Sequence record: MK573636
DNA length: 64,000 nucleotides
DNA from: Escherichia phage vB_EcoM_PHB13
Direction: 5' to 3' (one strand)
Shown piece after piece: positions 3,550-22,928 of the stretch. The translations under genes were made by a program, and so were the position numbers. The notes below the pieces were generated by a model. That model was not told the DNA's origin. It saw only the letters and a list, made by a program, of their open reading frames with translations, and did no database searches. Position 1 is the first letter of the stretch, and each line of letters opens with the position of its first letter.

Positions 3550-3998
3550 GCATAGAAATATTGCCTACACAAGAGCAGATAAGCAATTTTAATCTGGTTG
3601 ATTATCTGTGGATAGGTGCAAGCATTATTATCCTGATGGTGTTTTCAATTTTCGTGATACACTGGATGTTTAAGAAAGCACATAAGAATTTTCAGACCGC
3701 CATAATCCATGTCTTCGCTGTGCCTATTGTATTTGCTCTTTCTTCGTGTACAATGGACCATTATTCACAGGAACCGAAATTACATCCTCCACTACCAGCA
3801 CCAATAGAAAAAGTTGACATTGACCTGAATGTGGATACAATAGACGGTAAGCCTAGAGTTTCTATGTCGTGGGAGGACTCCCAAAAATTTAGAGTCTGGT
3901 TGGCTGATATTAAGAGATATACACTTGAAAGTAAGTTGATCCTGTGTTATTATCGCAAAGAACTCAATGAGGAACGGTGTAAACCGAAGGAGAAATAA
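3546..3998 (+). CDS. hypothetical membrane protein
   Basis: Two hydrophobic segments; start overlaps upstream stop, stop overlaps pseT start (TAATG). Confidence 0.45.
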   Translation: MSIEILPTQEQISNFNLVDYLWIGASIIILMVFSIFVIHWMFKKAHKNFQTAIIHVFAVPIVFALSSCTMDHYSQEPKLHPPLPAPIEKVDIDLNVDTIDGKPRVSMSWEDSQKFRVWLADIKRYTLESKLILCYYRKELNEERCKPKEK

Positions 3999-9924: not shown

Positions 9925-9953
9925 TTGACAGGGGATCACGTATCCCCTATACT
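9925..9953 (+). promoter_or_regulatory. sigma70-like early promoter cassette
   Basis: AAAAAGTTGTTGACA, spacer GGGGATCACGTATCCCC (inverted repeat), TATACT; ATG at 9997. Confidence 0.6.
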
Positions 9954-9996
9954 ACACACATCAAAACGAAACACACTTTCTTAAGGAGAATCAAAA

Positions 9997-10308
9997 ATGA
10001 AATACATCGTAACGCTGCCAATGATTGACTTCGACGGAACCATGAACACCCAGAAGACCATGAGCGCGGAGAACCAACTGAAAAACGCTACCCTGATTCG
10101 TGAAGTTCGCAAGGCACTGGCAAAAGAATTTAACACCAAAATTCATTCTGTAACTGGCGAACGTTTCGCGGATCATCTTGATATCAATATCAAACCAGTG
10201 CGCAACGGTGTTATCTCTGTAACAACCAACCGCCCACATGCTGACGCTGATAATCTGACCGCTCGCGCAGAAGATGTAATTATGACCGTTATCATGGAAA
10301 AACTTTAA
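9997..10308 (+). CDS. hypothetical early protein; paralog of 13313..13600
   Basis: 103 aa; shares REVRKALAKEFNTK / LVRDAVAKEFNFK block with 13313 ORF. Confidence 0.5.
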   Translation: MKYIVTLPMIDFDGTMNTQKTMSAENQLKNATLIREVRKALAKEFNTKIHSVTGERFADHLDINIKPVRNGVISVTTNRPHADADNLTARAEDVIMTVIMEKL

Positions 10309-10317
10309 AAAAAGTTG

Positions 10318-10347
10318 TTGACAGGGGAGGTTAAACTCCCCTATAAT
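10318..10347 (+). promoter_or_regulatory. sigma70-like early promoter cassette
   Basis: TTGACA, 18-bp spacer GGGGAGGTTAAACTCCCC, TATAAT. Confidence 0.6.
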
Positions 10348-10381
10348 ACACACATACCGAAACGAACTAGGAGAATCAATT

Positions 10382-10561
10382 ATGAACTTCAACGAAATCA
10401 TCGCTAAAATCCGCTACAACGAAGAAACCATTGAACTGATGCAAAACAATATCACCAATGGATATATGATTGCAGCGTCACAAGAAATCATTGATTTGAC
10501 GGTAGCAGAAAATGCTCAGTTGAAACATCAACTTTCAACGGCTGGCGTGATTGTTATGTAA
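10382..10561 (+). CDS. small hypothetical protein, 59 aa, not in ORF track
   Basis: ATG after cassette GGAGAATCAATT; translation MNFNEIIAKIRYNEETIELMQNN... Confidence 0.45.
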   Translation: MNFNEIIAKIRYNEETIELMQNNITNGYMIAASQEIIDLTVAENAQLKHQLSTAGVIVM

Positions 10562-10578
10562 TAAAGAGAGGTGACTAA

Positions 10579-10881
10579 ATGGCAAAAGTTCAGGTAGGTG
10601 AGGTCTTCAAAATGGAAGACCATACCGTGGAAGAGATGAAAGGCGCAGTATTGAAAGTAATTAATTCAATGTGGCGTAGTGTGCTTTACATCAACTTTAT
10701 CGACGGTGATGTGTGGTGGGCTAGCGATAGCGATAAATGGGATATCAAGTTCTACAAAGGTCATACTCACTGGTTAGGATCAGAGGATGTTGTAGAAGTT
10801 CTGGCGGTTGATGTTATGCCAGGAGAGATCGAGAATCTTAGCGGAACAGCAAAAGAAGCATTGACACGCCATTTTGCGTAA
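10579..10881 (+). CDS. HxHW-family small protein, copy 1 of 6
   Basis: 100 aa; GHTHW ... VLAVDVMPGE signature shared with five downstream paralogs. Confidence 0.55.
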   Translation: MAKVQVGEVFKMEDHTVEEMKGAVLKVINSMWRSVLYINFIDGDVWWASDSDKWDIKFYKGHTHWLGSEDVVEVLAVDVMPGEIENLSGTAKEALTRHFA

Positions 10882-10937
10882 TGTAGTATAACAATAATCG
10901 GGAGGGTAATACTCTCCCACAAATTGAGGATAATATT

Positions 10938-11129
10938 ATGTGTGGTCTTAAAATGGTTGCTGAATATAAGCGAACTGGTAATGTTATGATGTATCGACGC
11001 AATGCCAACGAAGAATGGAAACCTTCAAACCGCATTAAATCCATCCAGACGTTTATGAATAACATCAAAGAAAACCTTTTCGTTAAGCGTGCTGGTGCTG
11101 GACATTGGGAAGTTTACGAAGCTGTATAA
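10938..11129 (+). CDS. hypothetical protein
   Basis: 63 aa; preceded by degenerate cassette hairpin GGGAGGGTAATACTCTCCC and GAGGA site. Confidence 0.4.
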   Translation: MCGLKMVAEYKRTGNVMMYRRNANEEWKPSNRIKSIQTFMNNIKENLFVKRAGAGHWEVYEAV

Positions 11130-11145
11130 TTTTGAGGAAAATATT

Positions 11146-11454
11146 ATGGAACAAACTAAGCTATTTGTCGCGGAACCTTTTGTAAGAGACAATAAAAATC
11201 TGGCTAAAACAATCATTTTGTATTCGGATTGGATCTTTTATATCGATGGTAATTTAGACGTATATTGTCGCACAGCTCCAACTGATTCGTTTTATATCGA
11301 AGAAAACGACACTCATAATCATTGGTATGATGGAAACGACAAAACCGAACTAGCTGTTGTCCTAGCGTCAGACGTAGAACCTGAAAACGCGGACAAAGTA
11401 GCAGACAAATTTATGAAGTACGCATATAAAGATAAAAATGAAGATGAAGAATAA
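11146..11454 (+). CDS. HxHW-family small protein, copy 2 of 6
   Basis: THNHW ... LAVVLASDVEPENADKVADKF; ORF track start 11089 trimmed to ATG 11146. Confidence 0.5.
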   Translation: MEQTKLFVAEPFVRDNKNLAKTIILYSDWIFYIDGNLDVYCRTAPTDSFYIEENDTHNHWYDGNDKTELAVVLASDVEPENADKVADKFMKYAYKDKNEDEE

Positions 11455-11461
11455 AAAGTTG

Positions 11462-11490
11462 TTGACAGGGGATCACCGATCCCCTATAAT
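11462..11490 (+). promoter_or_regulatory. sigma70-like early promoter cassette
   Basis: TTGACA, spacer GGGGATCACCGATCCCC, TATAAT. Confidence 0.6.
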
Positions 11491-11524
11491 ACACACATAC
11501 CAACGAGATATAGGAGAATCAAAA

Positions 11525-11692
11525 ATGTTCCAGACTAAAGCAGAATGCGAAGCATACATTGTAGCAAACCACGGTGAAGACTACCTGAAATTCGATATCG
11601 TAGTAGCACAGAAGATCACCGGAATGGTTGCAAAATATCTGGGTGTTAAAGAAGGTTACTATCCTAGCAACGCACCAGAAATTAACAAATAA
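11525..11692 (+). CDS. small protein, 55 aa; near-identical paralog of 14783..14950
   Basis: MFQTKAECEAYIVANHGEDYLKFDIVVAQKITGMVAKYLGVKEGYYPSNAPEINK versus MFETKAACEAYIIETHGEDYLKFDIVVAQKIVGMVAKYLGVKEGYYPSNAPEINK; ORF track start 11438 lies inside the promoter. Confidence 0.55.
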   Translation: MFQTKAECEAYIVANHGEDYLKFDIVVAQKITGMVAKYLGVKEGYYPSNAPEINK

Positions 11693-11695
11693 TAG

Positions 11696-11724
11696 TTGAC
11701 AATGATTAAAGGGAGTAGTAAGAT
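11696..11724 (+). promoter_or_regulatory. sigma70-like early promoter cassette
   Basis: TTGACA, 17-bp spacer, TAAGAT; inverted repeat GGGAGTA/TACTCCC identical to the copy at 1121. Confidence 0.55.
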
Positions 11725-11756
11725 ACTCCCATCAAGACAACAAACGGAGAATCAAA

Positions 11757-11936
11757 ATGAAAGCTATCGAAGTTCAGAAGTACATGGAAATCATCGTTGA
11801 AAGTAAAGCACATTTAGTGTTGACTACTCACGTAGGATATGATAAAAATGTGCATATGCTGGTAGACAACATCGGCTGGATGAAGTTTAATCCTAACGAG
11901 AACGTACAAGCTCAAGAAATGACCATCCCTTTCTAA
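11757..11936 (+). CDS. small hypothetical protein, 59 aa, not in ORF track
   Basis: ATG after cassette GGAGAATCAAA; translation MKAIEVQKYMEIIVESKAHLVLTTHVGYDKNVHM... Confidence 0.45.
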   Translation: MKAIEVQKYMEIIVESKAHLVLTTHVGYDKNVHMLVDNIGWMKFNPNENVQAQEMTIPF

Positions 11937-11948
11937 GAGGAATATATT

Positions 11949-12227
11949 ATGATGCGAATTACTGCAACGCTGGATAAGACACACAAAGAAAGATTTTTCG
12001 GTATGATCTTAAAAACGCCGATTTTCGATAATTACCTTTATGTTGACTATAACGGTCACATTAGCTATAAATGTAAAAATGATATTCGTGATTCCTTTGG
12101 TGATAAATCACAAGCCGATATTCACGATCATTGGTGGAACCATGACGAACCTTTACGGGTTATCGCAGTTGATGTAAAAACAACAAAAGAAGCTGATAAG
12201 GTAGTGAATGATTATGAGCAAATTTAA
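11949..12227 (+). CDS. HxHW-family small protein, copy 3 of 6
   Basis: IHDHWWNHDEPLRVIAVDVKTTKEADKVV; AAGAGGA site. Confidence 0.55.
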   Translation: MMRITATLDKTHKERFFGMILKTPIFDNYLYVDYNGHISYKCKNDIRDSFGDKSQADIHDHWWNHDEPLRVIAVDVKTTKEADKVVNDYEQI

Positions 12228-12423
12228 AGATTATAAAGCATATCAACAGATCTTGCGAGTATACGAACCAGAGTTCGCCGAAAAGATGATGGAAGATGCA
12301 TCAAAATGCCCGTCCTTTTCTGGAAACAAAAACCATTATTCTACTGGTATTGTATCATGGAAAGAAACCGCATATACTCAACAATGGATAGATGTGTTTT
12401 CAAAAACTCTTGATTGGTGTTAA
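12208..12423 (+). CDS. small protein; tandem paralog A
   Basis: MSKFKDYKAY ... MMEDA ... W; paralogous to the next gene. Confidence 0.45.
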   Translation: MIMSKFKDYKAYQQILRVYEPEFAEKMMEDASKCPSFSGNKNHYSTGIVSWKETAYTQQWIDVFSKTLDWC

Positions 12424-12425
12424 TT

Positions 12426-12641
12426 ATGAGTAAATTTAAAGATTATCGAGCATATAAAGCGATCTGCGATATATTCGATGAAAAGACCGCTCATGCAATG
12501 ATGGAAGATGCAGAACAATATGAATCATTCGTCAATTCCAAAGATTGCACAGTAAACGAGGTTGTGTGCTGGAAAGATACAAAGTATGAAGAAAAATGGA
12601 TTACTGTGTATTACGGAGAACTAGAATATGAAATTAACTAA
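12426..12641 (+). CDS. small protein; tandem paralog B
   Basis: MSKFKDYRAY ... MMEDA ... W; ORF track start 12414 is TTG, ATG at 12426. Confidence 0.45.
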   Translation: MSKFKDYRAYKAICDIFDEKTAHAMMEDAEQYESFVNSKDCTVNEVVCWKDTKYEEKWITVYYGELEYEIN

Positions 12642-12948
12642 AAAGATTTTCCCAGAATTGCGTAACTGTCTGTTACTGGTTACTGAATATAAACCTTATA
12701 CGATCTACTTGTATGTTGATGAAAATCTGAAAATCCGTTACTATGATTATACGTCTCCAGTAATGAGATCATTTGCTCACGCGATAGCAAACAATTGTAT
12801 GAATCATAATCATTGGGTAAGTGATAATGATCATGATGCGTCAGAAGTTGTAGTGATCGCATGGAATCTATCACCAGCGGAAGCAGATCAAGCACGCATT
12901 AAGCATTATGCGAAAAACAATTGGTTTGACCTTATAAGTGAGGACTAA
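12628..12948 (+). CDS. HxHW-family small protein, copy 4 of 6
   Basis: MNHNHWVSDNDHDASEVVVIAWNLSPAEADQARIKHY. Confidence 0.5.
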   Translation: MKLTKKIFPELRNCLLLVTEYKPYTIYLYVDENLKIRYYDYTSPVMRSFAHAIANNCMNHNHWVSDNDHDASEVVVIAWNLSPAEADQARIKHYAKNNWFDLISED

Positions 12949-12952
12949 TATT

Positions 12953-13231
12953 ATGTTCAAAGTAGGTGATAAGTTTATTCTTAGTCGTGATATTCTCCCT
13001 AATCTGAAAGGTTGTATCATCAATCCTAGTAAAAATTCATGGTTTTATCTGTTTATCGACGACAAACTGAATGTACGCGCCGAATATAAAGAAGGTCTTC
13101 GTACTGGTCTAGGTTTCTTTCACGATCATGATCATAGCCATTGGCTAAACGGTGGATTCGAAGCAACGGTGCTAGCGGTTGATGTGACTTACACGAACAT
13201 CATAGAAAAATATCAAAAAATTATTTTATAA
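12953..13231 (+). CDS. HxHW-family small protein, copy 5 of 6
   Basis: FHDHDHSHWLNGGFEATVLAVDVTY; GAGGA site 9 nt upstream of ATG 12953. Confidence 0.5.
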   Translation: MFKVGDKFILSRDILPNLKGCIINPSKNSWFYLFIDDKLNVRAEYKEGLRTGLGFFHDHDHSHWLNGGFEATVLAVDVTYTNIIEKYQKIIL

Positions 13232-13237
13232 AAAGTG

Positions 13238-13266
13238 TTGACATAAGATCGGGTGTATAGCATAAT
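13238..13266 (+). promoter_or_regulatory. sigma70-like early promoter cassette
   Basis: TTGACA, 17-bp spacer, CATAAT inside perfect 8-bp inverted repeat GGGTGTAT/ATACACCC. Confidence 0.55.
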
Positions 13267-13312
13267 ACACCCATCGAAACGAGATACACTTTCTAACTAG
13301 GAGAATCAAATT

Positions 13313-13600
13313 ATGGCATACATCACTATCACTCTGAAAGTTAACAAATTTGCTCACGCTGCACACGAAACCGATAATGCAATCCGTAACAACAAGTTTG
13401 CACGTCTGGTACGCGATGCAGTAGCTAAAGAGTTCAACTTCAAATTTGCAGATGGTAAAGTTATCACTAAATGGACTCATGACGGCGAAACTAAAGTAGA
13501 ACTTGCTGACAACTTCGCAAATCAGGAATATGCACACCGCCGCATCAATGAAATCATCAGCGATGAACTCTACTACGGAGTACAGGAAGGTTTGTTTTAA
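13313..13600 (+). CDS. hypothetical early protein; paralog of 9997..10308
   Basis: 95 aa; shared AKEFN block. Confidence 0.5.
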   Translation: MAYITITLKVNKFAHAAHETDNAIRNNKFARLVRDAVAKEFNFKFADGKVITKWTHDGETKVELADNFANQEYAHRRINEIISDELYYGVQEGLF

Positions 13601-13604
13601 TATA

Positions 13605-13626
13605 GGGGGCGTTAAGCCCCTTTTAA
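13605..13626 (+). terminator. rho-independent terminator
   Basis: GGGGGCGTTAAGCCCC hairpin followed by TTTT. Confidence 0.55.
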
Positions 13627-13649
13627 TCTATCTGAATGAGGATATCACT

Positions 13650-13958
13650 ATGAAAAATCTTGTAGTTGAATTTACCCGCGAGAATTTACCACAATTTCGC
13701 AATTCTCTGCTTAAACTAGAGAACAGTAATTATGATGTATATTTTTACATCACCGAAGATCTAGAGATCCTTTACGCTGATTACCCAGGTCCGATCCGTA
13801 CCTTCGAAACCGCATCAAAATATAAAAATGTGCACGGTCATGAGCACTGGTTACGAGAAAACCCAGGTCGCAAGAAAGCACGCGTTAAAGTGTTGGCGAT
13901 TGACATAACACCAGCATACGCCGACCGGATTGCACAGAATGATTATTTGTCTAAATGA
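13650..13958 (+). CDS. HxHW-family small protein, copy 6 of 6
   Basis: VHGHEHWLRENPGRKKARVKVLAIDITPAYADRIAQNDY; ORF track start 13503 trimmed to ATG 13650 with GAGGA site. Confidence 0.5.
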   Translation: MKNLVVEFTRENLPQFRNSLLKLENSNYDVYFYITEDLEILYADYPGPIRTFETASKYKNVHGHEHWLRENPGRKKARVKVLAIDITPAYADRIAQNDYLSK

Positions 13959-13965
13959 TTTCATT

Positions 13966-13991
13966 AGCCGACCTTAGTGTCGGCTTTTTTA
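13966..13991 (+). terminator. rho-independent terminator
   Basis: GCCGAC-loop-GTCGGC hairpin followed by TTTTTT. Confidence 0.6.
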
Positions 13992-14016
13992 TTGCATAAA
14001 ATTTAAAAAAAAGGCA

Positions 14017-14045
14017 TTGACACCAGATCACGCCTATAGCATAAT
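14017..14045 (+). promoter_or_regulatory. sigma70-like early promoter cassette, one hairpin arm lost
   Basis: TTGACA, 17-bp spacer, CATAAT, ATACACCC arm only; conserved leader CATCGAAACGAGATACCACTTAGGAGAATCAAA. Confidence 0.5.
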
Positions 14046-14085
14046 ACACCCATCGAAACGAGATACCACTTAGGAGAATCAAACA

Positions 14086-14355
14086 ATGGCGCTGACTAAA
14101 ACCACTACCAACTTTGCAAAACGTCACGGCTTCGACCTTGAAATCAATAGCTTTAACGATTACACCCTTCTGTGTGTATATGAAATCGAAAATGATTGCG
14201 AGTGGATGTTCAGCTATCGCGTAAACGAAGACGGATCTTTCACTTGGAACGGAAATATCTATCTTGCACAGGAAGTAAAAGAAGAACTTCCGGCGACTAT
14301 CAAAGATGAGAAACATTTACGTCAAGTTTTAAAATTTATTTCTGAAAATATCTAA
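14086..14355 (+). CDS. hypothetical early protein
   Basis: 89-aa ORF after cassette. Confidence 0.5.
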   Translation: MALTKTTTNFAKRHGFDLEINSFNDYTLLCVYEIENDCEWMFSYRVNEDGSFTWNGNIYLAQEVKEELPATIKDEKHLRQVLKFISENI

Positions 14356-14362
14356 AAAGTTG

Positions 14363-14391
14363 TTGACACCAAAGTAAGAACATAGCATAAT
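14363..14391 (+). promoter_or_regulatory. sigma70-like early promoter cassette
   Basis: AAAAAGTTGTTGACA, 17-bp spacer, CATAAT. Confidence 0.5.
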
Positions 14392-14424
14392 ACACCCATA
14401 CCGAAACGAACTGGAGAATCAAAA

Positions 14425-14706
14425 ATGAAATTCATCAAAGCAACCGAAATCCTGAAAAACAAAGAAGCATACATCGGAAACATCGTTGGTATGAACATTC
14501 GCGGCGCTGGTAGCCAGTGGACCAAACTGGTTGATGTTAAAGCTAAAGGCGATAAAATTGAGTTCACTGTAAAAATGCTTACTCATAACGCACATATGGG
14601 TATCAAGACAAAAACGATGGCAGCAGATAAAAGCATCAACTATCAGGATCTGGGTGATTGGCTGAACTGGTGCAAAATGCACAACATCGAAACTAATCAC
14701 GAATAA
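14425..14706 (+). CDS. hypothetical early protein
   Basis: 93-aa ORF after cassette. Confidence 0.5.
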   Translation: MKFIKATEILKNKEAYIGNIVGMNIRGAGSQWTKLVDVKAKGDKIEFTVKMLTHNAHMGIKTKTMAADKSINYQDLGDWLNWCKMHNIETNHE

Positions 14707-14720
14707 TTTTAAAAAAGTTG

Positions 14721-14749
14721 TTGACGGGGATCGGGAGATCCCCTATAAT
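14721..14749 (+). promoter_or_regulatory. sigma70-like early promoter cassette
   Basis: TTGACG, spacer GGGGATCGGGAGATCCCC, TATAAT. Confidence 0.55.
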
Positions 14750-14782
14750 ACACACATACCGAAACGAAATAGGAGAATCAAA

Positions 14783-14950
14783 ATGTTCGAGACTAAAGCA
14801 GCATGTGAAGCATATATCATTGAAACCCACGGCGAAGATTATCTGAAATTTGACATTGTAGTAGCACAGAAGATTGTAGGGATGGTTGCGAAATACCTCG
14901 GAGTTAAAGAAGGTTACTATCCAAGCAACGCACCGGAAATTAACAAATAA
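14783..14950 (+). CDS. small protein, 55 aa; near-identical paralog of 11525..11692; not in ORF track
   Basis: See 11525 feature; ATG after AGGAGAATCAAA. Confidence 0.5.
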   Translation: MFETKAACEAYIIETHGEDYLKFDIVVAQKIVGMVAKYLGVKEGYYPSNAPEINK

Positions 14951-14965
14951 TTTTTATAAAAAGTG

Positions 14966-14994
14966 TTGACAGGGGAGACACCCTCCCCTATAAT
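14966..14994 (+). promoter_or_regulatory. sigma70-like early promoter cassette
   Basis: TTGACA, spacer GGGGAGACACCCTCCCC, TATAAT. Confidence 0.6.
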
Positions 14995-15034
14995 ACAACC
15001 ATCAAGACGAGATACCACTTAGGAGAATCAAACA

Positions 15035-15286
15035 ATGGCTAACATCGAAACCGCAAAGAAAATCGCTAAAGACCTGAACGTTAAAGGCTTCCGTAAACTG
15101 AAATTACAGCGTGTACGCTACACCATCGGCAAACAGTGCTCTTTCATGAGCGAAGAAGTTGCTAACAGCCTCATTGATAACCTGATTGCGGCTGGCTGGG
15201 AAGTTGCGGATCTGAAAACTTGCCGCGAACTGGCTAACAAAGGTCTTTTAGATTCTGTTACTATAAAACCAATGGGGGCAGCGTGA
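15035..15286 (+). CDS. hypothetical protein, first gene of a five-gene operon
   Basis: 83 aa; first 16 nt (ATGGCTAACATCGAAA) identical to the start of the 17164 gene. Confidence 0.5.
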   Translation: MANIETAKKIAKDLNVKGFRKLKLQRVRYTIGKQCSFMSEEVANSLIDNLIAAGWEVADLKTCRELANKGLLDSVTIKPMGAA

Positions 15287-15528
15287 AAAGAAAATTAATT
15301 AAACGAAATAAGGAATTTTTGAATAACTGCATTAAGGTTGCTAATGGTTGGCCTTTGTTCCTCTTCCTTTATGATTGGTATTCTAAACAATCGGTAGAGG
15401 AAACACGACACTATAAGAAGATCAGAAAAGAATCATATACAAAACAAGGCCGCATTAACGGACTTTACTTAATGTGGCACGGCAAAGAACCTTCTAAAAT
15501 CTGTGTTGGATTAAAGGGGCGTATATGA
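15283..15528 (+). CDS. basic hypothetical protein
   Basis: 81 aa; apparent GTG start overlapping upstream stop; no internal ATG until residue 64, so start is uncertain. Confidence 0.35.
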   Translation: MKRKLIKRNKEFLNNCIKVANGWPLFLFLYDWYSKQSVEETRHYKKIRKESYTKQGRINGLYLMWHGKEPSKICVGLKGRI

Positions 15529-16241
15529 AACAAAAATTAATATTCTGCAACTTTGACGGATCGGGGATAATGGGGCTAGAATGGGCTAAAGCAGGTCATA
15601 AGGTGATCTGCTTTAATGCAGATGATGCCGACCACGGCACATACAAAAAGTATAATACCCGATTTGAACATCCAAACATTACATATGTAAACACATGGAT
15701 TGATTTGGATTGGCTGGAAAGAGCAATGGACCTTGAATGGGGAAAACCAGATATTATCTTTGCATTCCCACCGTGCACCAATTTAGCTGTTAGTGGCGCT
15801 GCACACTTTGAACGAAAGAAACGAGAACAAGGACCATTAATTCAAGTTCATGATGTAAGGGCAGCTAAAATAACCGCTTATTTGGGCGAATGGTTAGAAG
15901 TTCCCTACATGATAGAGAATCCTGTAAGCGTTATCTCTAGCATGTGGCGTAAGCCTGATTACATGTTCCACCCGTGGGAATATGGCGGTTATTTGCCGGA
16001 ATATGATATACATCCTACGTTTCCTGAGTATATTGCCTCCCGTGATATGTACCCGAAAAAGACTTGCTTATGGACGGGACAAGGTTTTATAATGCCAGAA
16101 AAGAAACCTATACCGATTAATAAAGGGTACAGTAAACAGCATTCTAAGCTAGGCGGGAAAGGAACCAGAACAAAGACTATCAGGTCACTTACCCCGCGAG
16201 GATTCGCAAAGGCAGTATTTGAAGCCAATAAGGATCTATGA
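15525..16241 (+). CDS. cytosine-C5 methyltransferase-like protein (mini Dcm fold)
   Basis: Motif I-like LIFCNFDGSG, motif IV-like FAFPPCTNLAVSGAA (Pro-Cys), motif VI-like MIENPVS, C-terminal RSLTPRGFAKAV; only 238 aa with no room for a target-recognition domain. Confidence 0.45.
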   Translation: MKQKLIFCNFDGSGIMGLEWAKAGHKVICFNADDADHGTYKKYNTRFEHPNITYVNTWIDLDWLERAMDLEWGKPDIIFAFPPCTNLAVSGAAHFERKKREQGPLIQVHDVRAAKITAYLGEWLEVPYMIENPVSVISSMWRKPDYMFHPWEYGGYLPEYDIHPTFPEYIASRDMYPKKTCLWTGQGFIMPEKKPIPINKGYSKQHSKLGGKGTRTKTIRSLTPRGFAKAVFEANKDL

Positions 16242-16570
16242 TGGGATTGTTTAAGTATTCGCTAACGTCAAATTACGATAAACAAGGTCATTGCATCAGT
16301 TGCCCTGATTGTCGTAGCCATAACATCGAAAGCAAGATCACCGATCATATTGATGGACTTTGGTCGCCAGCAAGCGAGATAGAATACTATTGCGCTGATT
16401 GTGGAATTGTAGTAGCATATTGGGCATACGGATCATATGATCCTTACTTCCAGATGGGAGAGCGTTCAATCCCTGCTCTTATCTGGAGAATTAAGAACAA
16501 TATCCGCCATTCATGGGATGAGTTCTTAAAAGATATTGATTTACGTGATGATCCATTCAGGAGACTATAA
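16238..16570 (+). CDS. zinc-ribbon protein
   Basis: CISCPDC ... CADCG (two CxxC pairs); start overlaps upstream stop. Confidence 0.4.
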   Translation: MMGLFKYSLTSNYDKQGHCISCPDCRSHNIESKITDHIDGLWSPASEIEYYCADCGIVVAYWAYGSYDPYFQMGERSIPALIWRIKNNIRHSWDEFLKDIDLRDDPFRRL

Positions 16571-16571
16571 C

Positions 16572-17090
16572 ATGAACCGTTTGACGCCTAAACGCCGTTA
16601 CTATACCAATACTAAAAACTTTGTCATCTCTGTTTATGAGGCGTGGTTAGAAGATGGCTATATCAACATGAACCCAGATTACCAGCGTCCTTTGGTATGG
16701 GACACCGAAAACAAACGTATGTTTATCGAAAACCTGATTAATGATTTTCCGGTTGGTGCTATCGCAATGGCTAAGATTGATGATGGCTCTCGCTATGAGA
16801 TCGAAATCGTGGACGGTAAACAGCGTTTAAACGCAATATTCTCCTTTATGAAAGATGAGTTTAGCATTGCTGGTAATGATGATTCTATGTTGTATTACAG
16901 TGATTTTACGCCAGCAGAAAAGCGACGTTTTCGCAATCTCGGACTACCCGCGATCATGATGGAAGAGAGCACACGAGAAGATCGATTAGAATATTTCTAC
17001 AAAACAAACTTTTTCGGTGTGCCTCAATCAGAAGATCATCGCCAGCATGTGATTGCATTATTGCAAGATGAGCAATTAAAAAATAACTAA
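16572..17090 (+). CDS. DUF262 / ParB-like nuclease-superfamily domain protein
   Basis: NPDYQRPLVWD ... EIVDGKQRLNAI (YQR-W and DGxQR motifs); ORF track start 16536 trimmed to ATG 16572 with AGGAG site. Confidence 0.6.
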   Translation: MNRLTPKRRYYTNTKNFVISVYEAWLEDGYINMNPDYQRPLVWDTENKRMFIENLINDFPVGAIAMAKIDDGSRYEIEIVDGKQRLNAIFSFMKDEFSIAGNDDSMLYYSDFTPAEKRRFRNLGLPAIMMEESTREDRLEYFYKTNFFGVPQSEDHRQHVIALLQDEQLKNN

Positions 17091-17097
17091 AAAGTTG

Positions 17098-17127
17098 TTG
17101 ACAGGGGGATCGGTGATCCCCTATAAT
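17098..17127 (+). promoter_or_regulatory. sigma70-like early promoter cassette
   Basis: TTGACA, 18-bp spacer GGGGGATCGGTGATCCCC, TATAAT. Confidence 0.6.
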
Positions 17128-17163
17128 GCAAACATACCGAAACGAACTACTAAGGAGTATCAA

Positions 17164-17376
17164 ATGGCTAACATCGAAATCATCATTACCGACGTAACTT
17201 ATGACCGCATTAACGAAATCGGTACTGCTTTGCTAGAAGATGGAACAACTCGCACCATCAACTACGCAGAATACGTTGAAATGCGCGGTTGTATTAAACG
17301 AGTAGGAAAATATATCCTGATTGAAAAAGACTATTCAGGATACACATTAGAGCAATTGCTCGATGGTGCATTATAA
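17164..17376 (+). CDS. hypothetical protein
   Basis: 70 aa; ORF track start 17095 lies in the promoter; ATG at 17164 after AAGGAG. Confidence 0.5.
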   Translation: MANIEIIITDVTYDRINEIGTALLEDGTTRTINYAEYVEMRGCIKRVGKYILIEKDYSGYTLEQLLDGAL

Positions 17377-17382
17377 TAAATT

Positions 17383-17403
17383 GGGGCGTTAAGCCCCCTT
17401 TTC
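17383..17403 (+). terminator. rho-independent terminator
   Basis: GGGGCGTTAAGCCCC hairpin followed by CTTTTC. Confidence 0.5.
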
Positions 17404-17410
17404 ATAAATA
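17403..17410 (+). promoter_or_regulatory. possible T4-type late promoter variant for alt
   Basis: CATAAATA (7 of 8 match to TATAAATA) about 33 nt upstream of the alt ATG. Confidence 0.3.
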
Positions 17411-17443
17411 TAGGTTTATAGGTTATCAACTAGAGGATATAAA

Positions 17444-19495
17444 ATGTTTAACTTAGAAATCGACGATCTAATGATTGAATCTTTCGAGAAATGGCTGTTG
17501 ACGGAAGAGGAAGAAAACTTTGGCAGTATTGCTCCGGTACAGTGCTTAAAGCCTAAGCAGAATCCTAAACAGCTTTTTGCAGTACAGACACGCGATAAAG
17601 ATGTGATTGTCCGTCTTTGTAACTTCACCAACAAAACACCTAAAATCATTCGTATGGGTGACAAGACCGCACATGTTGTACTGTGCGAAATGAACAAAAG
17701 CGGTCGTATTGTACAGCTTAAAAATGGTCTAGGCGATAACCCGATTGCAGTTATGGCAAGTGCTTTTGATGTGGTTATGGAAACAGCCCGTAAAGCGCAA
17801 TTAGACGCTGTTATGTTCCGTTTTAACGTATCCCGCATGAAAGGTAAGACCGAACTGGTTAAGCGCGTTATAGAGCGTTTGGTGCGTCGTACACCGAAGT
17901 TTGAAGTATTCCAGCAGGAAGTAATGACCAGCAAAAAGATCGCTTTAGTTGTTGTCAAGCGTCGAGGTATGGCGATTGATAAGATTAAAGGGATTAAACT
18001 TGATGAATCCTTGTTCACTAAAGTAGAAAGTGATTTAGGTGATCGCTGGGTATCTAAAGCTACTGGCGAATCTCTGACTAAAGATGAAGCATATGCGGCT
18101 AGTCTTGTGTCAGAAGAAGAACGAAACGCGGAAGCAGAACAACGCGTAGCGGCTAAATCTCGTTTGACTAAAGAAGAAATGCTGAAAACTCAAGCGACCT
18201 ATAACAGCGACTATGTGAATCATCCAGAAAAAATTAATCTTAAACCGGAAGAAGATATCACCGAAGCAGAACCTAAGAAACAGTTTAATACTCTGATTGA
18301 CCGTCAAGCCTTAGAACGTTCAACCGCCCGTTCTCTGAATGACTGGACAAGTGATATTATCACTCGCTATGGTTTCATGCGTACTATTTTTGAAAGCGAA
18401 GCCGATGCAAAATACGCAGTAAGCGAACTGGTAAAAGTTCAGGACCAATATGATCCGTTGTCTGCGGAAGTTATCGCAGCATCAATCAAACGCTTAAAAG
18501 AAATCATGAGCGAGGAAGTATTCGAAAACAAGATCACTGCGTTGGCAATGGATCGAGTAGACCAGTCTATGCCAGCAGATGTAAAAGCTGAAATGCTGCG
18601 TAGTCATATCACACAGATTAAAACCGATGCCCTTCGTAATGTTGCCTCCGGTATGTTTGAAGCAATTGCAAGTAACATGGGTGAAATGATGGCAGATATT
18701 GATCTTGACCTACCAGGCGCGGAAGGTTTTGTGTTGAGCGAATATGCGGATGCAGCATACATCAATATGAACAACTTCCTAACCGATCGTAAGCTGGATG
18801 AGTTCGAAGGGATCGCTGACCCAGAAGAATTGGTCAAGATGTGCGACGCACTGGATAATGCCTTCGCTAACTATGGCGTTAAACTTGATCCGGGTACTAT
18901 TCTGTATCGTGGTATGGACTTCCGGTCTCAAATGTGGGAAACTGCACGTAAGCAAAAAGCGTTTTACTTTAAAAACTATGTGAGCACTTCCCTTGCACCT
19001 AACATTTTTGGCGGCTGGAATGCAAACGTGGCTAGTGCCGTTGCTGGTGTTGATTCTATGGCTGGCTCTCGCGGTGAAGGTGGCGCGAATGTTGCTTTCT
19101 CCATTGCTGGCGCGGAAAACATCCCTGTATTGCCAGTAGGTAACAAAGCATTTGCTTACAAAGAATGCGAGATTTTACTTCCTCGCGGTGTTGTGTTATC
19201 CTTTGATACGGTAACTCGTGCTACGGCATCGACGGATTCACAAGAAACATATTACATTGAGGCACATATTATGAACAAAAGTGAACTGGCAGCATTACAA
19301 GAATCTGGCGAAATGATCGCGGATGGTGATGCATTCATCCGTGAAGGTGTTGTTAAACCTGCTTCTGACCTGTCTTTCTCCAGATTCATTACAGAAGCTA
19401 AAACCGAACGTAAGAAAGCAGATAAGGCAACTCTACGTCAGCTTATCGCTGATCTGGTGTCTGTAGACGCAATGCCAGATAAATTTAAAATGTAA
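17444..19495 (+). CDS. alt: ADP-ribosyltransferase Alt
   Basis: 683 aa (T4 Alt is about 682); C-terminal ART triad LYRGM / YVSTSL / ECEILLPRG; position between gene 30 region and gene 54 as in T4. Confidence 0.75.
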   Translation: MFNLEIDDLMIESFEKWLLTEEEENFGSIAPVQCLKPKQNPKQLFAVQTRDKDVIVRLCNFTNKTPKIIRMGDKTAHVVLCEMNKSGRIVQLKNGLGDNPIAVMASAFDVVMETARKAQLDAVMFRFNVSRMKGKTELVKRVIERLVRRTPKFEVFQQEVMTSKKIALVVVKRRGMAIDKIKGIKLDESLFTKVESDLGDRWVSKATGESLTKDEAYAASLVSEEERNAEAEQRVAAKSRLTKEEMLKTQATYNSDYVNHPEKINLKPEEDITEAEPKKQFNTLIDRQALERSTARSLNDWTSDIITRYGFMRTIFESEADAKYAVSELVKVQDQYDPLSAEVIAASIKRLKEIMSEEVFENKITALAMDRVDQSMPADVKAEMLRSHITQIKTDALRNVASGMFEAIASNMGEMMADIDLDLPGAEGFVLSEYADAAYINMNNFLTDRKLDEFEGIADPEELVKMCDALDNAFANYGVKLDPGTILYRGMDFRSQMWETARKQKAFYFKNYVSTSLAPNIFGGWNANVASAVAGVDSMAGSRGEGGANVAFSIAGAENIPVLPVGNKAFAYKECEILLPRGVVLSFDTVTRATASTDSQETYYIEAHIMNKSELAALQESGEMIADGDAFIREGVVKPASDLSFSRFITEAKTERKKADKATLRQLIADLVSVDAMPDKFKM

Positions 19496-19512
19496 TTTTT
19501 AAGAAATAATGG

Positions 19513-19550
19513 TTGACTCAAACGGGGACTAGTTTTATACTAGCCCCGTT
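19513..19550 (+). promoter_or_regulatory. sigma70-like promoter overlapping a terminator-like hairpin
   Basis: TTGACT, 17-bp spacer, TATACT embedded in ACGGGGACTAG / CTAGCCCCGT hairpin followed by TTTTCTGTT. Confidence 0.45.
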
Positions 19551-19573
19551 TTCTGTTATATGGGAGGTTTAAA

Positions 19574-20398
19574 ATGTTCAAGAAATTACAGGATTTTCGT
19601 CTTTCAGAAGAATCACGCGAATCAATGATGGAACGTATGGATAATTACATCGAAACATATGACATTGAGGGGATTAATGGTTACATGATCACTGAGATGA
19701 TCAGCGATCAGATTAACTTTGATGATTATGTGAAGGTTATCCGCTTCCTTGAGCGTGAGACACAAGATTATGGATTTGTCAAGAAAATCATTAATGTGAT
19801 GTATGAAGTACACTCCGAAGACTTTGGAGATAATGTATTCAAACATTACAAACATAACAACATAACCCCAGCAGAATATAATGCAATCTGTGATTATGTG
19901 TCTGAACAATACGAATGGGTAAATGGTGCTCTCTTAGGGGAAGAAGACATGACCGATGAGATATCAGAGATTGTTGATTTGATGGATTGCGCCATGGATA
20001 AAACCGAAAAGTTAAACGGTACTCTTTATCGCGGTCAACATCTTGACATTCAGACAATAGAGCGTATTATTGAAGATAAGGAATTTACCTTTAAAAACTT
20101 TGTGTCAACCAGCATGACACCGATCATCTTTGGAGGCTGGCTATCAAACAGCACTAGCCTTTATTGTGAGAATCGATATGAATCCATGACCGGAAAGATG
20201 CAACATTCTTGTAATGTATCGTGGGTAATTGACGTAAAAGATCATAAAGGTTTTGTTGTTGGGTCAATTGCATGGAATCCTTGCGAATGTGAAGTAATTT
20301 TACCGCGCGGGACTTGCGTCAAGGTAAACGACGTAGTAGAATCTTTCGGTGATGAGAATCGTAGACAATTTACAATTTTCGGTGAGGTGACTAAATGA
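19574..20398 (+). CDS. ADP-ribosyltransferase, short Alt paralog
   Basis: 274 aa; LYRGQ / FVSTSMTPIIFGGW / CECEVILPRG parallel the Alt catalytic motifs. Confidence 0.6.
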   Translation: MFKKLQDFRLSEESRESMMERMDNYIETYDIEGINGYMITEMISDQINFDDYVKVIRFLERETQDYGFVKKIINVMYEVHSEDFGDNVFKHYKHNNITPAEYNAICDYVSEQYEWVNGALLGEEDMTDEISEIVDLMDCAMDKTEKLNGTLYRGQHLDIQTIERIIEDKEFTFKNFVSTSMTPIIFGGWLSNSTSLYCENRYESMTGKMQHSCNVSWVIDVKDHKGFVVGSIAWNPCECEVILPRGTCVKVNDVVESFGDENRRQFTIFGEVTK

Positions 20399-20907
20399 AA
20401 ATGATTAAACTGATTGGTCTTGCGGCTTTAGTGGCTATGCTTAATGGGTGCGCTGTGCATGATCTGGCACTTGCATCTAAGAATACACACGAGTTTGTAC
20501 GGTCATGTGAACGATGGCAGAAAGAGTCACGTTTTCCATTTAATAGCGTTGAAGATTGCGTGATTGACTACCTTGAAAAGAAAGACGCCTCATTACAGCG
20601 TTTAGGTCGTCAACCGGAATCAGCAGAACAGATCGCAAAGATTAAGGCAGATAAAGAAGCAGAGAAGAAACGCATTTACGAATATTATTATGGTCATGAA
20701 AATTCAATTGAAGAAATGAATCGCAAAGCAATGGAAGATGCCGACCGTCGTAGAAAATTTGGAGTATGTGTAATCGGGACGGAAGCAGCATATCAAGATG
20801 ATCTTTCGGCTGCATATGAGGAAGGGGATTATGAAAAACTTCAATTGCTACAATCAAAACAGTATCGCTATAAACTACGCAAACAATGTGATGATTTAAT
20901 CAAATAA
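20395..20907 (+). CDS. predicted lipoprotein
   Basis: Signal peptide MKMIKLIGLAALVAMLNG followed by lipobox Cys (LNGC). Confidence 0.55.
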   Translation: MKMIKLIGLAALVAMLNGCAVHDLALASKNTHEFVRSCERWQKESRFPFNSVEDCVIDYLEKKDASLQRLGRQPESAEQIAKIKADKEAEKKRIYEYYYGHENSIEEMNRKAMEDADRRRKFGVCVIGTEAAYQDDLSAAYEEGDYEKLQLLQSKQYRYKLRKQCDDLIK

Positions 20908-20909
20908 AA

Positions 20910-20935
20910 GGCGGGGATTATCCCCGCCTTTCGCT
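20910..20935. terminator. bidirectional rho-independent terminator
   Basis: GGCGGGGATTATCCCCGCC hairpin with T-runs on both strands; lies between convergent lipoprotein gene and gene 54. Confidence 0.6.
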
Positions 20936-20937
20936 TA

Positions 20938-21870
20938 TCAGAACCAGTTAGTGACAGTATTCACCACACGCCCACCAACGCCATTTAGACGCGATAAAGC
21001 ATTACCAGCAGCAGATAACCCACTATCAAGTAAATTATTGCCGAACGTGTTTGTTATTGCGTTTATTGCCTTATCCTCAATCCATTCTCGCGCGGCTTGC
21101 TCTCCTACAGCACCAGTTTGCATAGAACGATATGCGAAAGTAACATCGAATGTTGTGATTTCGTTGTTGTTTTCATAGTTTAATTCCGGTGCACTCACAC
21201 CAACAGGAACACAACCATTAAACATCATGATCGTGTGAGGAACTCCCATTCGGTTATGTAAGTTGACCTGAATATCTGCTTCAACGTCAACAGGAAGCGC
21301 ACGAAGCCCTGTAACGGGGTCTTCTACTGAGTTAACCCAATCCTGCATTGCTCGATAGTTTGATGCGCTAGAGTCCATTCTAAAGCTCAATACAAGCGGA
21401 TCGAAATCACGTCCGGTAATTCGAATGTTTGGCGCATTGTGGTTACGGTCCATTTCATAATTCAATCTGTTTTCTGGAACCTTAACAGCATACACCAGAA
21501 GACCGCTTGTCTTATATGCCATATTGAACCAGTCAAGCGCATATGTACCAACATCAAATTGCCCCAGAAGAGATTGAACTACGCGGGATGACATTGCACC
21601 TAAAAGATACTTTTTGACACCAGATGAATCAACAGCACGCCTAACACCCTGTACAGCAAGATTTGTTAATGCGTCAGTATAATCACCACGAGTAATCCCG
21701 AAATAGTCATTTAATGCATTTGGTATAATATCATATACCGCACCGCCCATACTTTCTAGGATCGCTTGTGTCTTATTACTTGGAGTGGTGGCAAATGCCA
21801 CGCTGAATAAGTTAGATCGCTGAAAGTCAAGGTTAGCGGCTTGTTCGTTAAAGTCATTTAAATCAAACAT
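20938..21870 (-). CDS. 54: baseplate tail-tube initiator
   Basis: 310 aa (T4 gp54 about 320); synteny alt - 54 - 48 - 29. Confidence 0.6.
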   Translation of the reverse strand: MFDLNDFNEQAANLDFQRSNLFSVAFATTPSNKTQAILESMGGAVYDIIPNALNDYFGITRGDYTDALTNLAVQGVRRAVDSSGVKKYLLGAMSSRVVQSLLGQFDVGTYALDWFNMAYKTSGLLVYAVKVPENRLNYEMDRNHNAPNIRITGRDFDPLVLSFRMDSSASNYRAMQDWVNSVEDPVTGLRALPVDVEADIQVNLHNRMGVPHTIMMFNGCVPVGVSAPELNYENNNEITTFDVTFAYRSMQTGAVGEQAAREWIEDKAINAITNTFGNNLLDSGLSAAGNALSRLNGVGGRVVNTVTNWF

Positions 21871-22928
21871 TATGCCGCACTCCCAAATATAGTACCACGG
21901 GAAAGTGTCAAGATCTCTCTAAATGATACTTCCAGAACAAAGGTACTCGGCAAGTTAGGAGAAATAGCAAGGCCATTAAACTTACCATCAGGCGACTTGT
22001 CCAGACGTACACTTGAGATCTGAGCGGGACCAAATGCATCGCTACGCCCTTCAAACGATGTACGCTTACCGAAGTTAGAGATCATCCATATTGTCGGGTT
22101 AGATACAGTAATTGCGTTTGATAGAAAATCGGTGATCCCTTCAAACAGAGTATCATTTCTCTTCGCTTCCTCTGGGGTGGATTTTCTCAATAGTGTATTT
22201 TTATACCACGCATCAACTTCCGCTTTTAGTTCTTTTGCGGTGCTTGAAATACCACTAGATCCATAAGACAATTCTAAAAACGTTTCGTATATGATCAGAA
22301 TATTGCGAAGGTCTTCAATACTACGTGGGGTTAAATGCCATACATAGTTTTTAGTTCGTGCGTCAGCACCCGCATACATGCTTCGTGCAGTATTATAAAT
22401 CTGTTCACCGTGATCGGCAAGGTATCCACCAGTAATACTTTCGATACCACCAAAAACGGCAGTAGATGCCATATTAGAAAGAGCACCGCCTAAAGTACCA
22501 CCGCCGCGAGAAATGACAGATTCACCAACATCATTAAACTTATGGCTAGCAGCGTCAACGTCAGATTGACTACGAGGAAGAAGAATATTAGCAATTGCCT
22601 CTCGGTCAAATGCAGCATTTCTCCCACCCAAATTTAAATCAAAACCAGCGATATTAACGCTACCACCAAAACCACTAGCAACATTTTTCTTTTTCCTGAA
22701 ATCACGCAACGATCCGGTAGTACGAGATGTATAATCGTATGCAGTGAATAACAGACCATTATTATATAAGTCGTTGATATAATAACCGCTAGCATCATTA
22801 CCGCTAGCACGTTCAGCGGGGAATTGAGCGGTTAATGTTTTCCCTTTATTTTTTGAGGTAAAACCAGCGGAGGTTTTAACCCCCGCTTTAAAGCTATCAA
22901 CGGCATCATTGATAACACTAATTTTCAT
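21870..22928 (-). CDS. 48: baseplate tail-tube cap
   Basis: 352 aa (T4 gp48 about 364); synteny. Confidence 0.6.
   Translation of the reverse strand: MKISVINDAVDSFKAGVKTSAGFTSKNKGKTLTAQFPAERASGNDASGYYINDLYNNGLLFTAYDYTSRTTGSLRDFRKKKNVASGFGGSVNIAGFDLNLGGRNAAFDREAIANILLPRSQSDVDAASHKFNDVGESVISRGGGTLGGALSNMASTAVFGGIESITGGYLADHGEQIYNTARSMYAGADARTKNYVWHLTPRSIEDLRNILIIYETFLELSYGSSGISSTAKELKAEVDAWYKNTLLRKSTPEEAKRNDTLFEGITDFLSNAITVSNPTIWMISNFGKRTSFEGRSDAFGPAQISSVRLDKSPDGKFNGLAISPNLPSTFVLEVSFREILTLSRGTIFGSAA

Follow-up and report, generated by a model that had tools for sequence, protein, structure and literature searches.

A stretch of 64,000 nucleotides (nt) from Escherichia phage vB_EcoM_PHB13 (sequence record MK573636), referred to here as the window, carries a second, short ADP-ribosyltransferase (ART) gene directly behind the ART gene alt, and behind that a gene for a predicted lipoprotein. 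The short ART is intact, is under very strong purifying selection and lacks the regions that distinguish packaged Alt. It is preceded by a conserved promoter-hairpin element resembling the promoter-early stem-loop (PeSL) cassettes of related phages. The reading to which we lean, with confidence slightly above even, is that the locus consists of a late alt unit and an early, PeSL-driven unit encoding the short ART together with a lipoprotein that would act at the envelope as a conflict factor. The open reading frame (ORF) list gives, on the + strand, the order alt, short ART, lipoprotein, followed by the convergent tail-tube and baseplate genes 54, 48 and 29. The three ORFs lie where an earlier, sequence-only reading of the window had placed them (Table 1), and the arrangement itself is already known, as the genes are annotated in public genomes.

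Megablast searches identify the window as a Krischvirus, an RB49-like relative of T4, with ~98% identity to E26 and RB49. Each of the 58 phage records that match is 95-99% identical over the region 17000-21000, with E26, 011D4, G37-3 and RB49 as the top matches. In the RB49 RefSeq record (NC_005066), RB49p183 is labelled an ADP-ribosyltransferase 'similar to C-terminal part of T4 Alt', and the third gene is already called a lipoprotein in W115 ('putative lipoprotein') and in KFS-EC ('Lipoprotein', UniProt). RB49ORF183c was listed among the alt paralogues by Nolan et al. 2006 (PMC1524935), a list that also contains T4 alt.-1/alt.-2 and 44RR ORF187c/188c (PMC1524935). Overall, the sequence-only reading was a correct reading of genes already annotated. 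What is added here is that the short ART is intact, constrained and without the packaged-Alt regions, that it probably belongs to an early PeSL-type unit, and that the lipoprotein is swapped as a cassette and is not a spanin.

The membership of both proteins in one ART family is far beyond chance. Against PF03496 (ADPrib_exo_Tox; cut-off 23.4 bits) the short ART scores 62.8 bits over residues 82-266 and the 683-amino-acid (aa) Alt scores 36.1 bits. The short ART matches PHROG 15144, 'ADP-ribosyltransferase', over its full length (1e-197), as Alt matches phrog_802 (3.3e-179). Alt is 98.8% identical to RB49 Alt and, over its full length, 27% identical to T4 Alt. The short ART and the window's Alt share 37% identity over 109 residues of the catalytic core (E = 1e-16). 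The motifs from which a catalytic triad had been proposed for the 274-aa protein are present at LYRGQ 151-155, FVSTSMTPIIFGGW 176-189 and CECEVILPRG 237-246. The R / S-T-S / E context that it was said to share with Alt is kept throughout, with R153, S178-T179-S180 and E238-C-E240 invariant across the family alignment. When aligned with T4 Alt, ModA and ModB, the R / STS / ExE motifs are in register and the catalytic glutamate is retained.

The AlphaFold2 model of the short ART has a mean predicted local distance difference test score (pLDDT) of 84.6 and a predicted template-modelling score (pTM) of 0.83, with an N-terminal helical region at residues 12-142 and an R-S-ExE ART core at 146-272. 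A Foldseek search of the PDB returned 141 matches at E <= 0.001, the top ones all being C2/C3-like ARTs; CDTa, Certhrax, C3bot, Vis, Iota-Ia and Plx2a were matched at E ~1e-10. Between Krischviruses the ratio of nonsynonymous to synonymous divergence (dN/dS) of the short ART is 0.017-0.042, which denotes very strong purifying selection and is lower than the 0.03-0.11 of alt. These values mark the short ART as a functional gene under constraint, as opposed to a remnant. The intact site, the toxin fold and the low dN/dS together suggest that it is catalytically functional, and the R-S-ExE site predicts that it modifies arginine.

Profile-profile comparison aligns short ART residues 66-273 to Alt 396-610 with an HH probability of 99.9%. 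The sequence-only reading had described the N-terminal region of the short ART as different from that of Alt; this holds for the first ~65 residues, which have no detectable Alt counterpart, but not for residues 66-273. The ~65-residue N-terminus is conserved within the short-ART clade, where D45, Y52, I56 and E60 are invariant. Alt residues 1-395, its N-terminal region, have no equivalent in the short ART, and PF26846, which covers this region in relatives, is recorded only on the full-length neighbours. The C-terminal tail ...MPDKFKM, which is common to Alt and other truncated Alt-type proteins and occurs in Alt, P0007 and P0008, is missing from every member of the short-ART clade (6/6). The short ART, without the regions that distinguish packaged Alt, looks unlike Alt in its delivery. 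An origin by duplication of alt is favoured by the profile match to Alt 396-610, by the 2006 paralogue list and by the precedent of T4 alt.-1 and alt.-2. The neighbours of alt in T4 had been described as small ORFs of unknown function. They are small ORFs, but they are not simply unknown: at 56-62% identity to Alt residues 1-117, alt.-1 and alt.-2 are a decayed duplication of the alt N-terminus.

The gap between alt and the short ART measures 78 nt and holds a predicted promoter, a hairpin, TTTTCTGTT and a GGGAGG Shine-Dalgarno sequence (19562-19567). The hairpin folds at -18.9 kcal/mol (z = -5.9), and 0/200 shuffled sequences folded as well. PeSLs are promoter-early stem-loop cassettes of RB49 and phi1 (PMC2839356, PMC4122927), and promoter and terminator activity was demonstrated on other copies from these phages by reporter fusions (PMC2839356). 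As defined here, a PeSL is an intergenic pair of sigma-70 -35 and -10 boxes with a 16-18 nt spacer and a stable G/C stem-loop that lies within or overlaps it, followed by a Shine-Dalgarno sequence and a start codon. The element between alt and the short ART has each of these sequence features, and its promoter and terminator activities are predicted from this architecture. Six classic PeSLs lie upstream on the same strand (9925, 10318, 11462, 14721, 14966 and 17098).

The gap element is conserved beyond the near-identical phages. The annotators of GEC-3S placed a promoter at the site equivalent to 19513-19541. In L006, a metagenomic relative whose short ART is 44% identical, the promoter is kept as TTGACA-17-TATACT and the hairpin (z = -4.9) shows compensatory changes. 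In L009, another metagenomic relative whose short ART is only 31% identical, TTGACA-17-TAGAAT is accompanied by a hairpin (z = -5.0) with an unrelated stem sequence. No ATAAATA late motif was found in the 78-nt gap before the short ART; a late-promoter-like motif sits before alt instead. The short ART is thus probably expressed separately from alt, and early.

Upstream of alt, a GC hairpin followed by a T-run at 17383-17397 (-10.7 kcal/mol, z = -2.5 by RNA folding) coincides with a terminator annotated at the equivalent site in GEC-3S, and a hairpin is also found there in L006. This terminator-like element may insulate alt from the early PeSL cassettes upstream. It is followed by CATAAATA, which matches the T4 late consensus TATAAATA at 7/8 positions and is a putative late promoter of alt. 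L006 (AATAAATA) and L009 (TCTAAATA) conserve the TAAATA core and the leader GGTTATCAAC, with unchanged spacing to the start codon. At the other end of the locus, the terminator common to the lipoprotein gene and gene 54 has a stability of -19.6 kcal/mol (z = -4.4), is annotated on both strands in GEC-3S and is 100% conserved between the window and RB49. Taken together, these signals suggest a late alt, with the short ART and the lipoprotein forming an insulated early operon. A further sigma-70 match (11/12, TTGACA-16-TATTAT) occurs within the short ART gene at 20043-20070 (+), 325 nt upstream of the lipoprotein start, and could be an internal lipoprotein promoter or a chance occurrence.

Table 1. 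Coordinates in the window of the alt, short ART and lipoprotein genes and of the signals around them
Feature	Position	Strand	Basis or detail
Terminator-like GC hairpin and T-run, 5' of alt	17383-17397	+	Terminator scan; RNA fold
Late-promoter-like motif CATAAATA	17403-17410	+	34 nt 5' of alt start
alt, full-length Alt-like ADP-ribosyltransferase, 683 aa	17444-19495	+	phrog_802, PF03496
Predicted sigma-70-type early promoter, TTGACT (19513-19518), 17-nt spacer, TATACT (19536-19541)	19513-19541	+	10/12 match
Stable stem-loop (PeSL type) overlapping the -10 box, then TTTTCTGTT	19520-19551	+	RNA fold
Short Alt-paralogue ADP-ribosyltransferase, 274 aa (= RB49p183, PHROG 15144)	19574-20398	+	Pfam, PHROG, AlphaFold2, dN/dS
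Predicted lipoprotein, 170 aa (positional homologue of RB49p182, PHROG 16112)	20395-20907	+	ORF list, PHROG, lipobox
Bidirectional intrinsic terminator, common to lipoprotein and convergent gene 54	20906-20932	both	12-pair stem

The lipoprotein gene had been described as translationally coupled to the short ART, and the junction fits this description: the stop codon and the start codon share the tetranucleotide ATGA, and a GAGGTG Shine-Dalgarno sequence precedes it. Lipoprotein signals were assessed by a charged n-region, a hydrophobic h-region and a lipobox of the form [LVI][ASTVI][GAS]C within ~25 residues. The signal peptide MKMIKLIGLAALVAMLNGC has K2 and K5, an h-region of 11 residues, the lipobox L-N-G-C (C19) and Ala at +2. 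The lipobox had been called canonical. The signal is indeed present, but L-N-G-C is only near-canonical, with an atypical Asn at -2, and most other alleles have L-T-G-C. By its signals the 170-aa protein is a predicted substrate of signal peptidase II, and lipidation is predicted. In E. coli the residue at +2 decides the membrane to which the Lol system sorts a lipoprotein, and Asp would retain it from the outer membrane. Because Ala and not Asp occupies +2, the outer membrane is the predicted location.

The mature lipoprotein is modelled as all-helical, with ~150 residues of helix (pLDDT 84.5, pTM 0.54); given this pTM, the relative arrangement of the helices is uncertain. The lipobox Cys and C38, C55, C125 and C165 are conserved, around a variable charged linker, in all homologues (45, and 10 representatives), and we propose that the mature domain is stapled by disulfides. 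These 45 homologues came from a profile search of 5.8 billion proteins, and an exhaustive profile search of 1.84 billion representatives gave just 10 family members. The family is clade-restricted, in that every genomic context examined belongs to this phage clade and has the order Alt, short ART, lipoprotein (overlapping or abutting) and gene 54. Nothing useful on the lipoprotein came from PADLOC, NCBIfam or Pfam, with no Pfam family at E <= 1, and structure and family searches gave no functional lead.

The variability of the lipoprotein differs sharply from that of its neighbors. Relative to RB49, Alt is 98.8% and the short ART 99.6% identical, whereas identity falls to 33% in the lipoprotein (170 aa in the window, 161 aa in RB49). 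The window allele is identical in E26 and G37-3. Among the 58 phages there are at least five allele types, with >=99%, 91%, 48%, 46% and 28-33% identity to that of the window, so that alleles sharing only 28-33% identity sit inside genomes that are ~98% identical. DNA identity between the window and RB49 is ~100% up to nt ~31 of the lipoprotein ORF, drops steeply throughout the mature domain and is regained over the final ~12 nt of the ORF and the shared terminator, so that both edges of the cassette are sharp. For the pair of alleles with 91% identity, the synonymous divergence (dS) of the lipoprotein is 0.225, three times the ~0.08 of the flanking alt and short ART. This makes the import of old alleles the better explanation of the variability and suggests that older lipoprotein alleles were brought in by recombination under moderate constraint (dN/dS 0.22). 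Positive selection acting on the whole gene was considered and rejected, as the dN/dS of ~0.22 is not above 1. Frameshift-truncated lipoproteins of 96-107 aa occur in P0051, P0052 and P0053, which are Krischvirus-like contigs; their first ~85 residues are common and then diverge. As judged from these reading frames, the gene is inactivated in some natural or laboratory lineages.

These observations can be assembled into a model with two expression units. In the first, alt would lie behind a terminator and a late-promoter-like motif, and Alt would, by analogy with T4, be made late, packaged in the head and injected. In the second, the PeSL-type element would stop transcripts arriving from alt and start an early bicistronic mRNA dependent on host sigma-70. 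The short ART, a putative product of tandem alt duplication composed of the catalytic half (Alt 396-610) and a clade-specific extension of ~65 residues, would remain in the cytoplasm. After early de novo synthesis it would ADP-ribosylate arginines of one or more host proteins, making it a functional analogue of the early Mod enzymes of T4. The lipoprotein would be exported by the Sec and Lol pathways to the outer membrane, outside the lysis machinery, and would be swapped as an allelic cassette among near-identical phages. Its most likely role would be that of an early envelope-acting conflict factor, which excludes competing phages or masks an envelope component; exclusion or envelope masking is our best guess. 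The sequence-only reading had taken the second competent ART to imply an additional host target and had offered superinfection exclusion as a candidate role of the lipoprotein; both stay at the level of inference.

Several observations weigh against this model. In the divergent lineage L011 the gap between alt and the ART gene is 26 nt and contains a Shine-Dalgarno sequence and no usable -10 box, so the short ART there probably rides on the alt transcript. Sigma-70-like matches are not enriched in the region (23 versus 18.9 +/- 4.9 in shuffles), so that conservation and the PeSL precedent are what carry the promoter call; in addition, TATACT departs from the -10 consensus. The late motif before alt is a 7/8 match in every lineage and canonical in none. 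Alt/VIP2-family phage ARTs near morphogenesis genes are often head-packaged (PMC9503650). For the lipoprotein, alleles do not co-vary with those of the gp38 adhesin, and the truncated copies in some phages imply that growth in culture, at least, does not require it. Nothing specific on virion proteomics, transcriptomics or ART biochemistry of Krischviruses came out of literature searches, and no experimental work was found on the short ART or the lipoprotein gene.

Some of these points would be accommodated if the short ART were a second packaged effector, made late and injected like Alt. The position of the gene between alt and the baseplate and tail-tube genes, a context in which Alt/VIP2-family ARTs are often head-packaged (PMC9503650), is compatible with this, as is the lack of room for a promoter of its own in L011. 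The short ART also has a weak match to phrog_595, 'head maturation protease' (2.1e-5), which reflects existing protease-ART fusions. We nevertheless regard packaging as unlikely, since both Alt 1-395 and the C-terminal tail of Alt-type proteins are missing, a strong hairpin with a T-run splits the gene off from alt, a sigma-70 promoter is found in 3/4 lineages, and the gap has no late motif. A decaying, functionless remnant of an alt duplication is far less probable still. T4 alt.-1/alt.-2 do show that pieces of alt at this position can decay to small ORFs, but here every lineage retains an open frame and the full set of catalytic residues, the gene has its own Shine-Dalgarno sequence and predicted promoter, and the dN/dS below that of alt effectively refutes decay. 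We also considered whether the overlap of the two downstream genes reflects more than mere compaction, the ART and the lipoprotein being a coupled pair such as a toxin and its antidote or chaperone, or an exported ART system. The genes overlap or abut in every lineage found (ATGA, TAATG or a 1-nt gap), this adjacency holds down to ~25% lipoprotein and 31% ART identity, and the lipoprotein family stands beside the short ART in every context examined. A pair of this kind is nonetheless quite improbable. The ART has no signal peptide and the lipoprotein is predicted to be exported, so different compartments are expected. The ART also stays at 99-100% identity while lipoprotein alleles drop to ~30%; this argues against a physical partnership, shows no co-evolution of an interface and disfavours a toxin-antidote relationship. 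Stop/start overlaps occur elsewhere in the genome as well, for example in the spanin pair, and the linkage is explained by vertical synteny because both genes are trapped between conserved core genes.

The candidate identities of the lipoprotein were weighed in the same way. A phage lipoprotein with periplasmic cysteines recalls an outer-membrane spanin (o-spanin, Rz1-like) or another lysis component, and the strict lipobox scan yielded no lipoprotein besides the 170-aa one. A relaxed scan combined with PHROG, however, gave the true spanin pair, an inner-membrane spanin (i-spanin) at 3226-3549 (phrog_739, 2e-26) and an o-spanin at 3546-3998 (phrog_812, 4e-32), next to pseT and syntenic with T4. 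Furthermore, the 170-aa protein has no adjacent i-spanin (its upstream gene is the ART) and no PHROG spanin match, is not proline-rich, has ~150 residues of helix and lies behind an early-type promoter. The o-spanin identity was rejected on account of the pair at 3226-3998, and a lysis role is almost certainly wrong. A less remote, though still rather unlikely, alternative is that the lipoprotein acts on the host envelope for the benefit of its own phage and not against other phages. It might mask OmpA or lipopolysaccharide on debris in the manner of T5 Llp, tune lysis inhibition or block an envelope-associated defence, and its allelic variation would in that case follow the diversity of the hosts. 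OmpA and O antigen serve RB49-like phages as receptors (PMC9569957). Expression appears to be early, the protein is hypervariable yet moderately constrained (dN/dS ~0.22), and the phages that carry the alleles have differing host strains. A receptor-masking role tied to the adhesin was rejected, as lipoprotein allele groups and gp38 identity groups do not co-vary: E26 and 011D4, with the window-type lipoprotein, carry the ~83% gp38 type found in GEC-3S and Sf20, which have the RB49-type lipoprotein, and AV108 and PTE-Eco09, with the 91% allele, carry RB49-type gp38. No similarity to known receptor-blocking lipoprotein families in Pfam was found. Alleles of ~30% identity are not readily reconciled with the conserved periplasmic face of OmpA. 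A bolder version of the two-unit model, which we consider doubtful, sees in the short ART and the lipoprotein a conserved module that would serve Krischviruses in early conflict. At least five types of lipoprotein allele (28-91% identity), swapped as cassettes among genomes that are ~98% identical, would represent mutually distinct envelope exclusion or masking specificities of co-circulating phages and, as a polymorphic system, replace missing Sp and Imm, and the alt-derived ART would take a Mod-like role with its own target set or an RNAylation activity. When a composite Krischvirus genome was searched by tblastn with T4 Sp and Imm, no match reached E < 0.05, and the best one fell inside gene 41.

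Other features of the window were recorded alongside this analysis. The spanin pair occupies its T4-syntenic position between RNA ligase and pseT. Its i-spanin has an N-terminal transmembrane segment; its o-spanin has an ALSSC lipobox and a Pro-rich segment, and the ORF was probably called too long, an internal Met being the likely start. On the + strand, 9925-17127 contains an array of classic PeSLs (GTTGACAGGGG...CCCCTATAAT), each 5' of a small ORF in the hyperplastic region before alt. A DNA methyltransferase (15525-16241, = RB49p189) and a DUF262-domain protein (16536-17090, = W115_155) are encoded among the early cassettes shortly before the alt region. A single small ORF (17164-17376, phrog_10679) separates the DUF262 gene from alt in the window, against two in RB49, W115, GEC-3S and E26, as determined by comparing window 17090-17444 with L002 1591-2190 and L001 3091-3692. 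The window is without a ~250-bp cassette equivalent to RB49p186, a shorter form that is also present in G37-3 and PTE-Eco09 and that is consistent with PeSL-mediated gain or loss of cassettes. Downstream, AV108 and Whisky carry highly divergent alleles of gp54 and gp48 (87% and 75-78% aa identity, dS 0.6-1.6; L015 4742-6729 for AV108 and L016 4740-6715 for Whisky compared with window 20938-22928), and those of RB49 and W115 are >99% identical to the window. This mosaic block does not match the lipoprotein allele groups. Gene 29 of Whisky appears as two ORFs.

The three ADP-ribosyltransferases of T4 are the textbook case of viral host reprogramming by protein modification, and ModB recently revealed protein RNAylation. 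RB49 appears to have arrived at three ARTs by another route, with Alt, an alt-derived and probably early enzyme, and a single Mod. If the alt-derived enzyme has indeed taken a Mod-like role, this would be an independent evolutionary route to the T4 scheme of one injected plus two early ARTs. RB49 set beside T4 is a natural system in which to ask which targets a phage cannot do without and how the timing and delivery of ARTs are specified. The lipoprotein, small and highly polymorphic, is an envelope protein probably produced early, and it occurs in a phage group with therapeutic use. Should it control exclusion or the masking of receptors, it would influence interference among the phages of a cocktail.

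Among known systems, the closest is RB49 itself, where RB49p183 is 99.6% identical to the window's short ART and lies in the same position with the same flanks, alt and gene 54. T4 alt.-1 and alt.-2 occupy the same place, between alt and gene 54, and are likewise products of alt duplication. T4, however, kept a decayed, non-catalytic N-terminal part; what Krischviruses retain is the catalytic C-terminal part, undamaged and under selection. T4 Alt, a packaged arginine-specific mono-ADP-ribosyltransferase of the Alt/VIP2 family (R-S-E clade), is homologous to the short ART in its catalytic half, with 32% identity over 181 aa (T4 Alt 413-593) and the same R / STS / ExE motifs. Unlike T4 Alt, the short ART lacks ~395 N-terminal residues and the C-terminal tail, and a sigma-70-type promoter replaces the late context. 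ModA and ModB of T4 are small stand-alone R-S-ExE enzymes expressed early from host-type promoters, and ModB also RNAylates. The short ART gave no pairwise BLAST match with E < 1 to either, and its genomic location differs from theirs; its presumed ancestor is alt and not mod. In place of the modA-modB pair of T4, RB49 has a single Mod homologue, RB49p014 (L005 8917-9420; 167 aa), which adjoins srd and is 33% identical to T4 ModB and 23% to ModA. By these assignments the Krischvirus clade has three ARTs, as T4 does, in a different composition (Alt, short ART and one Mod).

The C2/C3-like toxins (CDTa, Iota-Ia, C3bot, Vis, Certhrax and Plx2a) resemble the short ART in fold and in the layout of the active site, with template-modelling scores to the target of 0.6-0.7 for the single-domain toxins, but sequence identity is just 13-20%. 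What sets the short ART apart from these toxins is its helical N-terminal extension, which is specific to phages, and the absence of any component for delivery or binding. Weak sequence matches were obtained to Vis and to the type VI secretion effector Tre1; the PDB sequence search gave no solved Alt or Mod structure, and only weak matches to Tre1, Vis and SpvB. The lipoprotein resembles T5 Llp, Cor of phi80 and N15, F TraT and T4 Sp and Imm in kind only, as a small exported envelope protein predicted to be early, with no similarity in sequence or structure. The element in the gap matches the 'SLS overlapping the -10' subclass of PeSLs, which have an AT-rich upstream region, a sigma-70 promoter and a G/C-tract stem-loop. 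Unlike classic PeSLs, its boxes are slightly off consensus (TTGACT / TATACT) and its stem runs downstream into a T-run.

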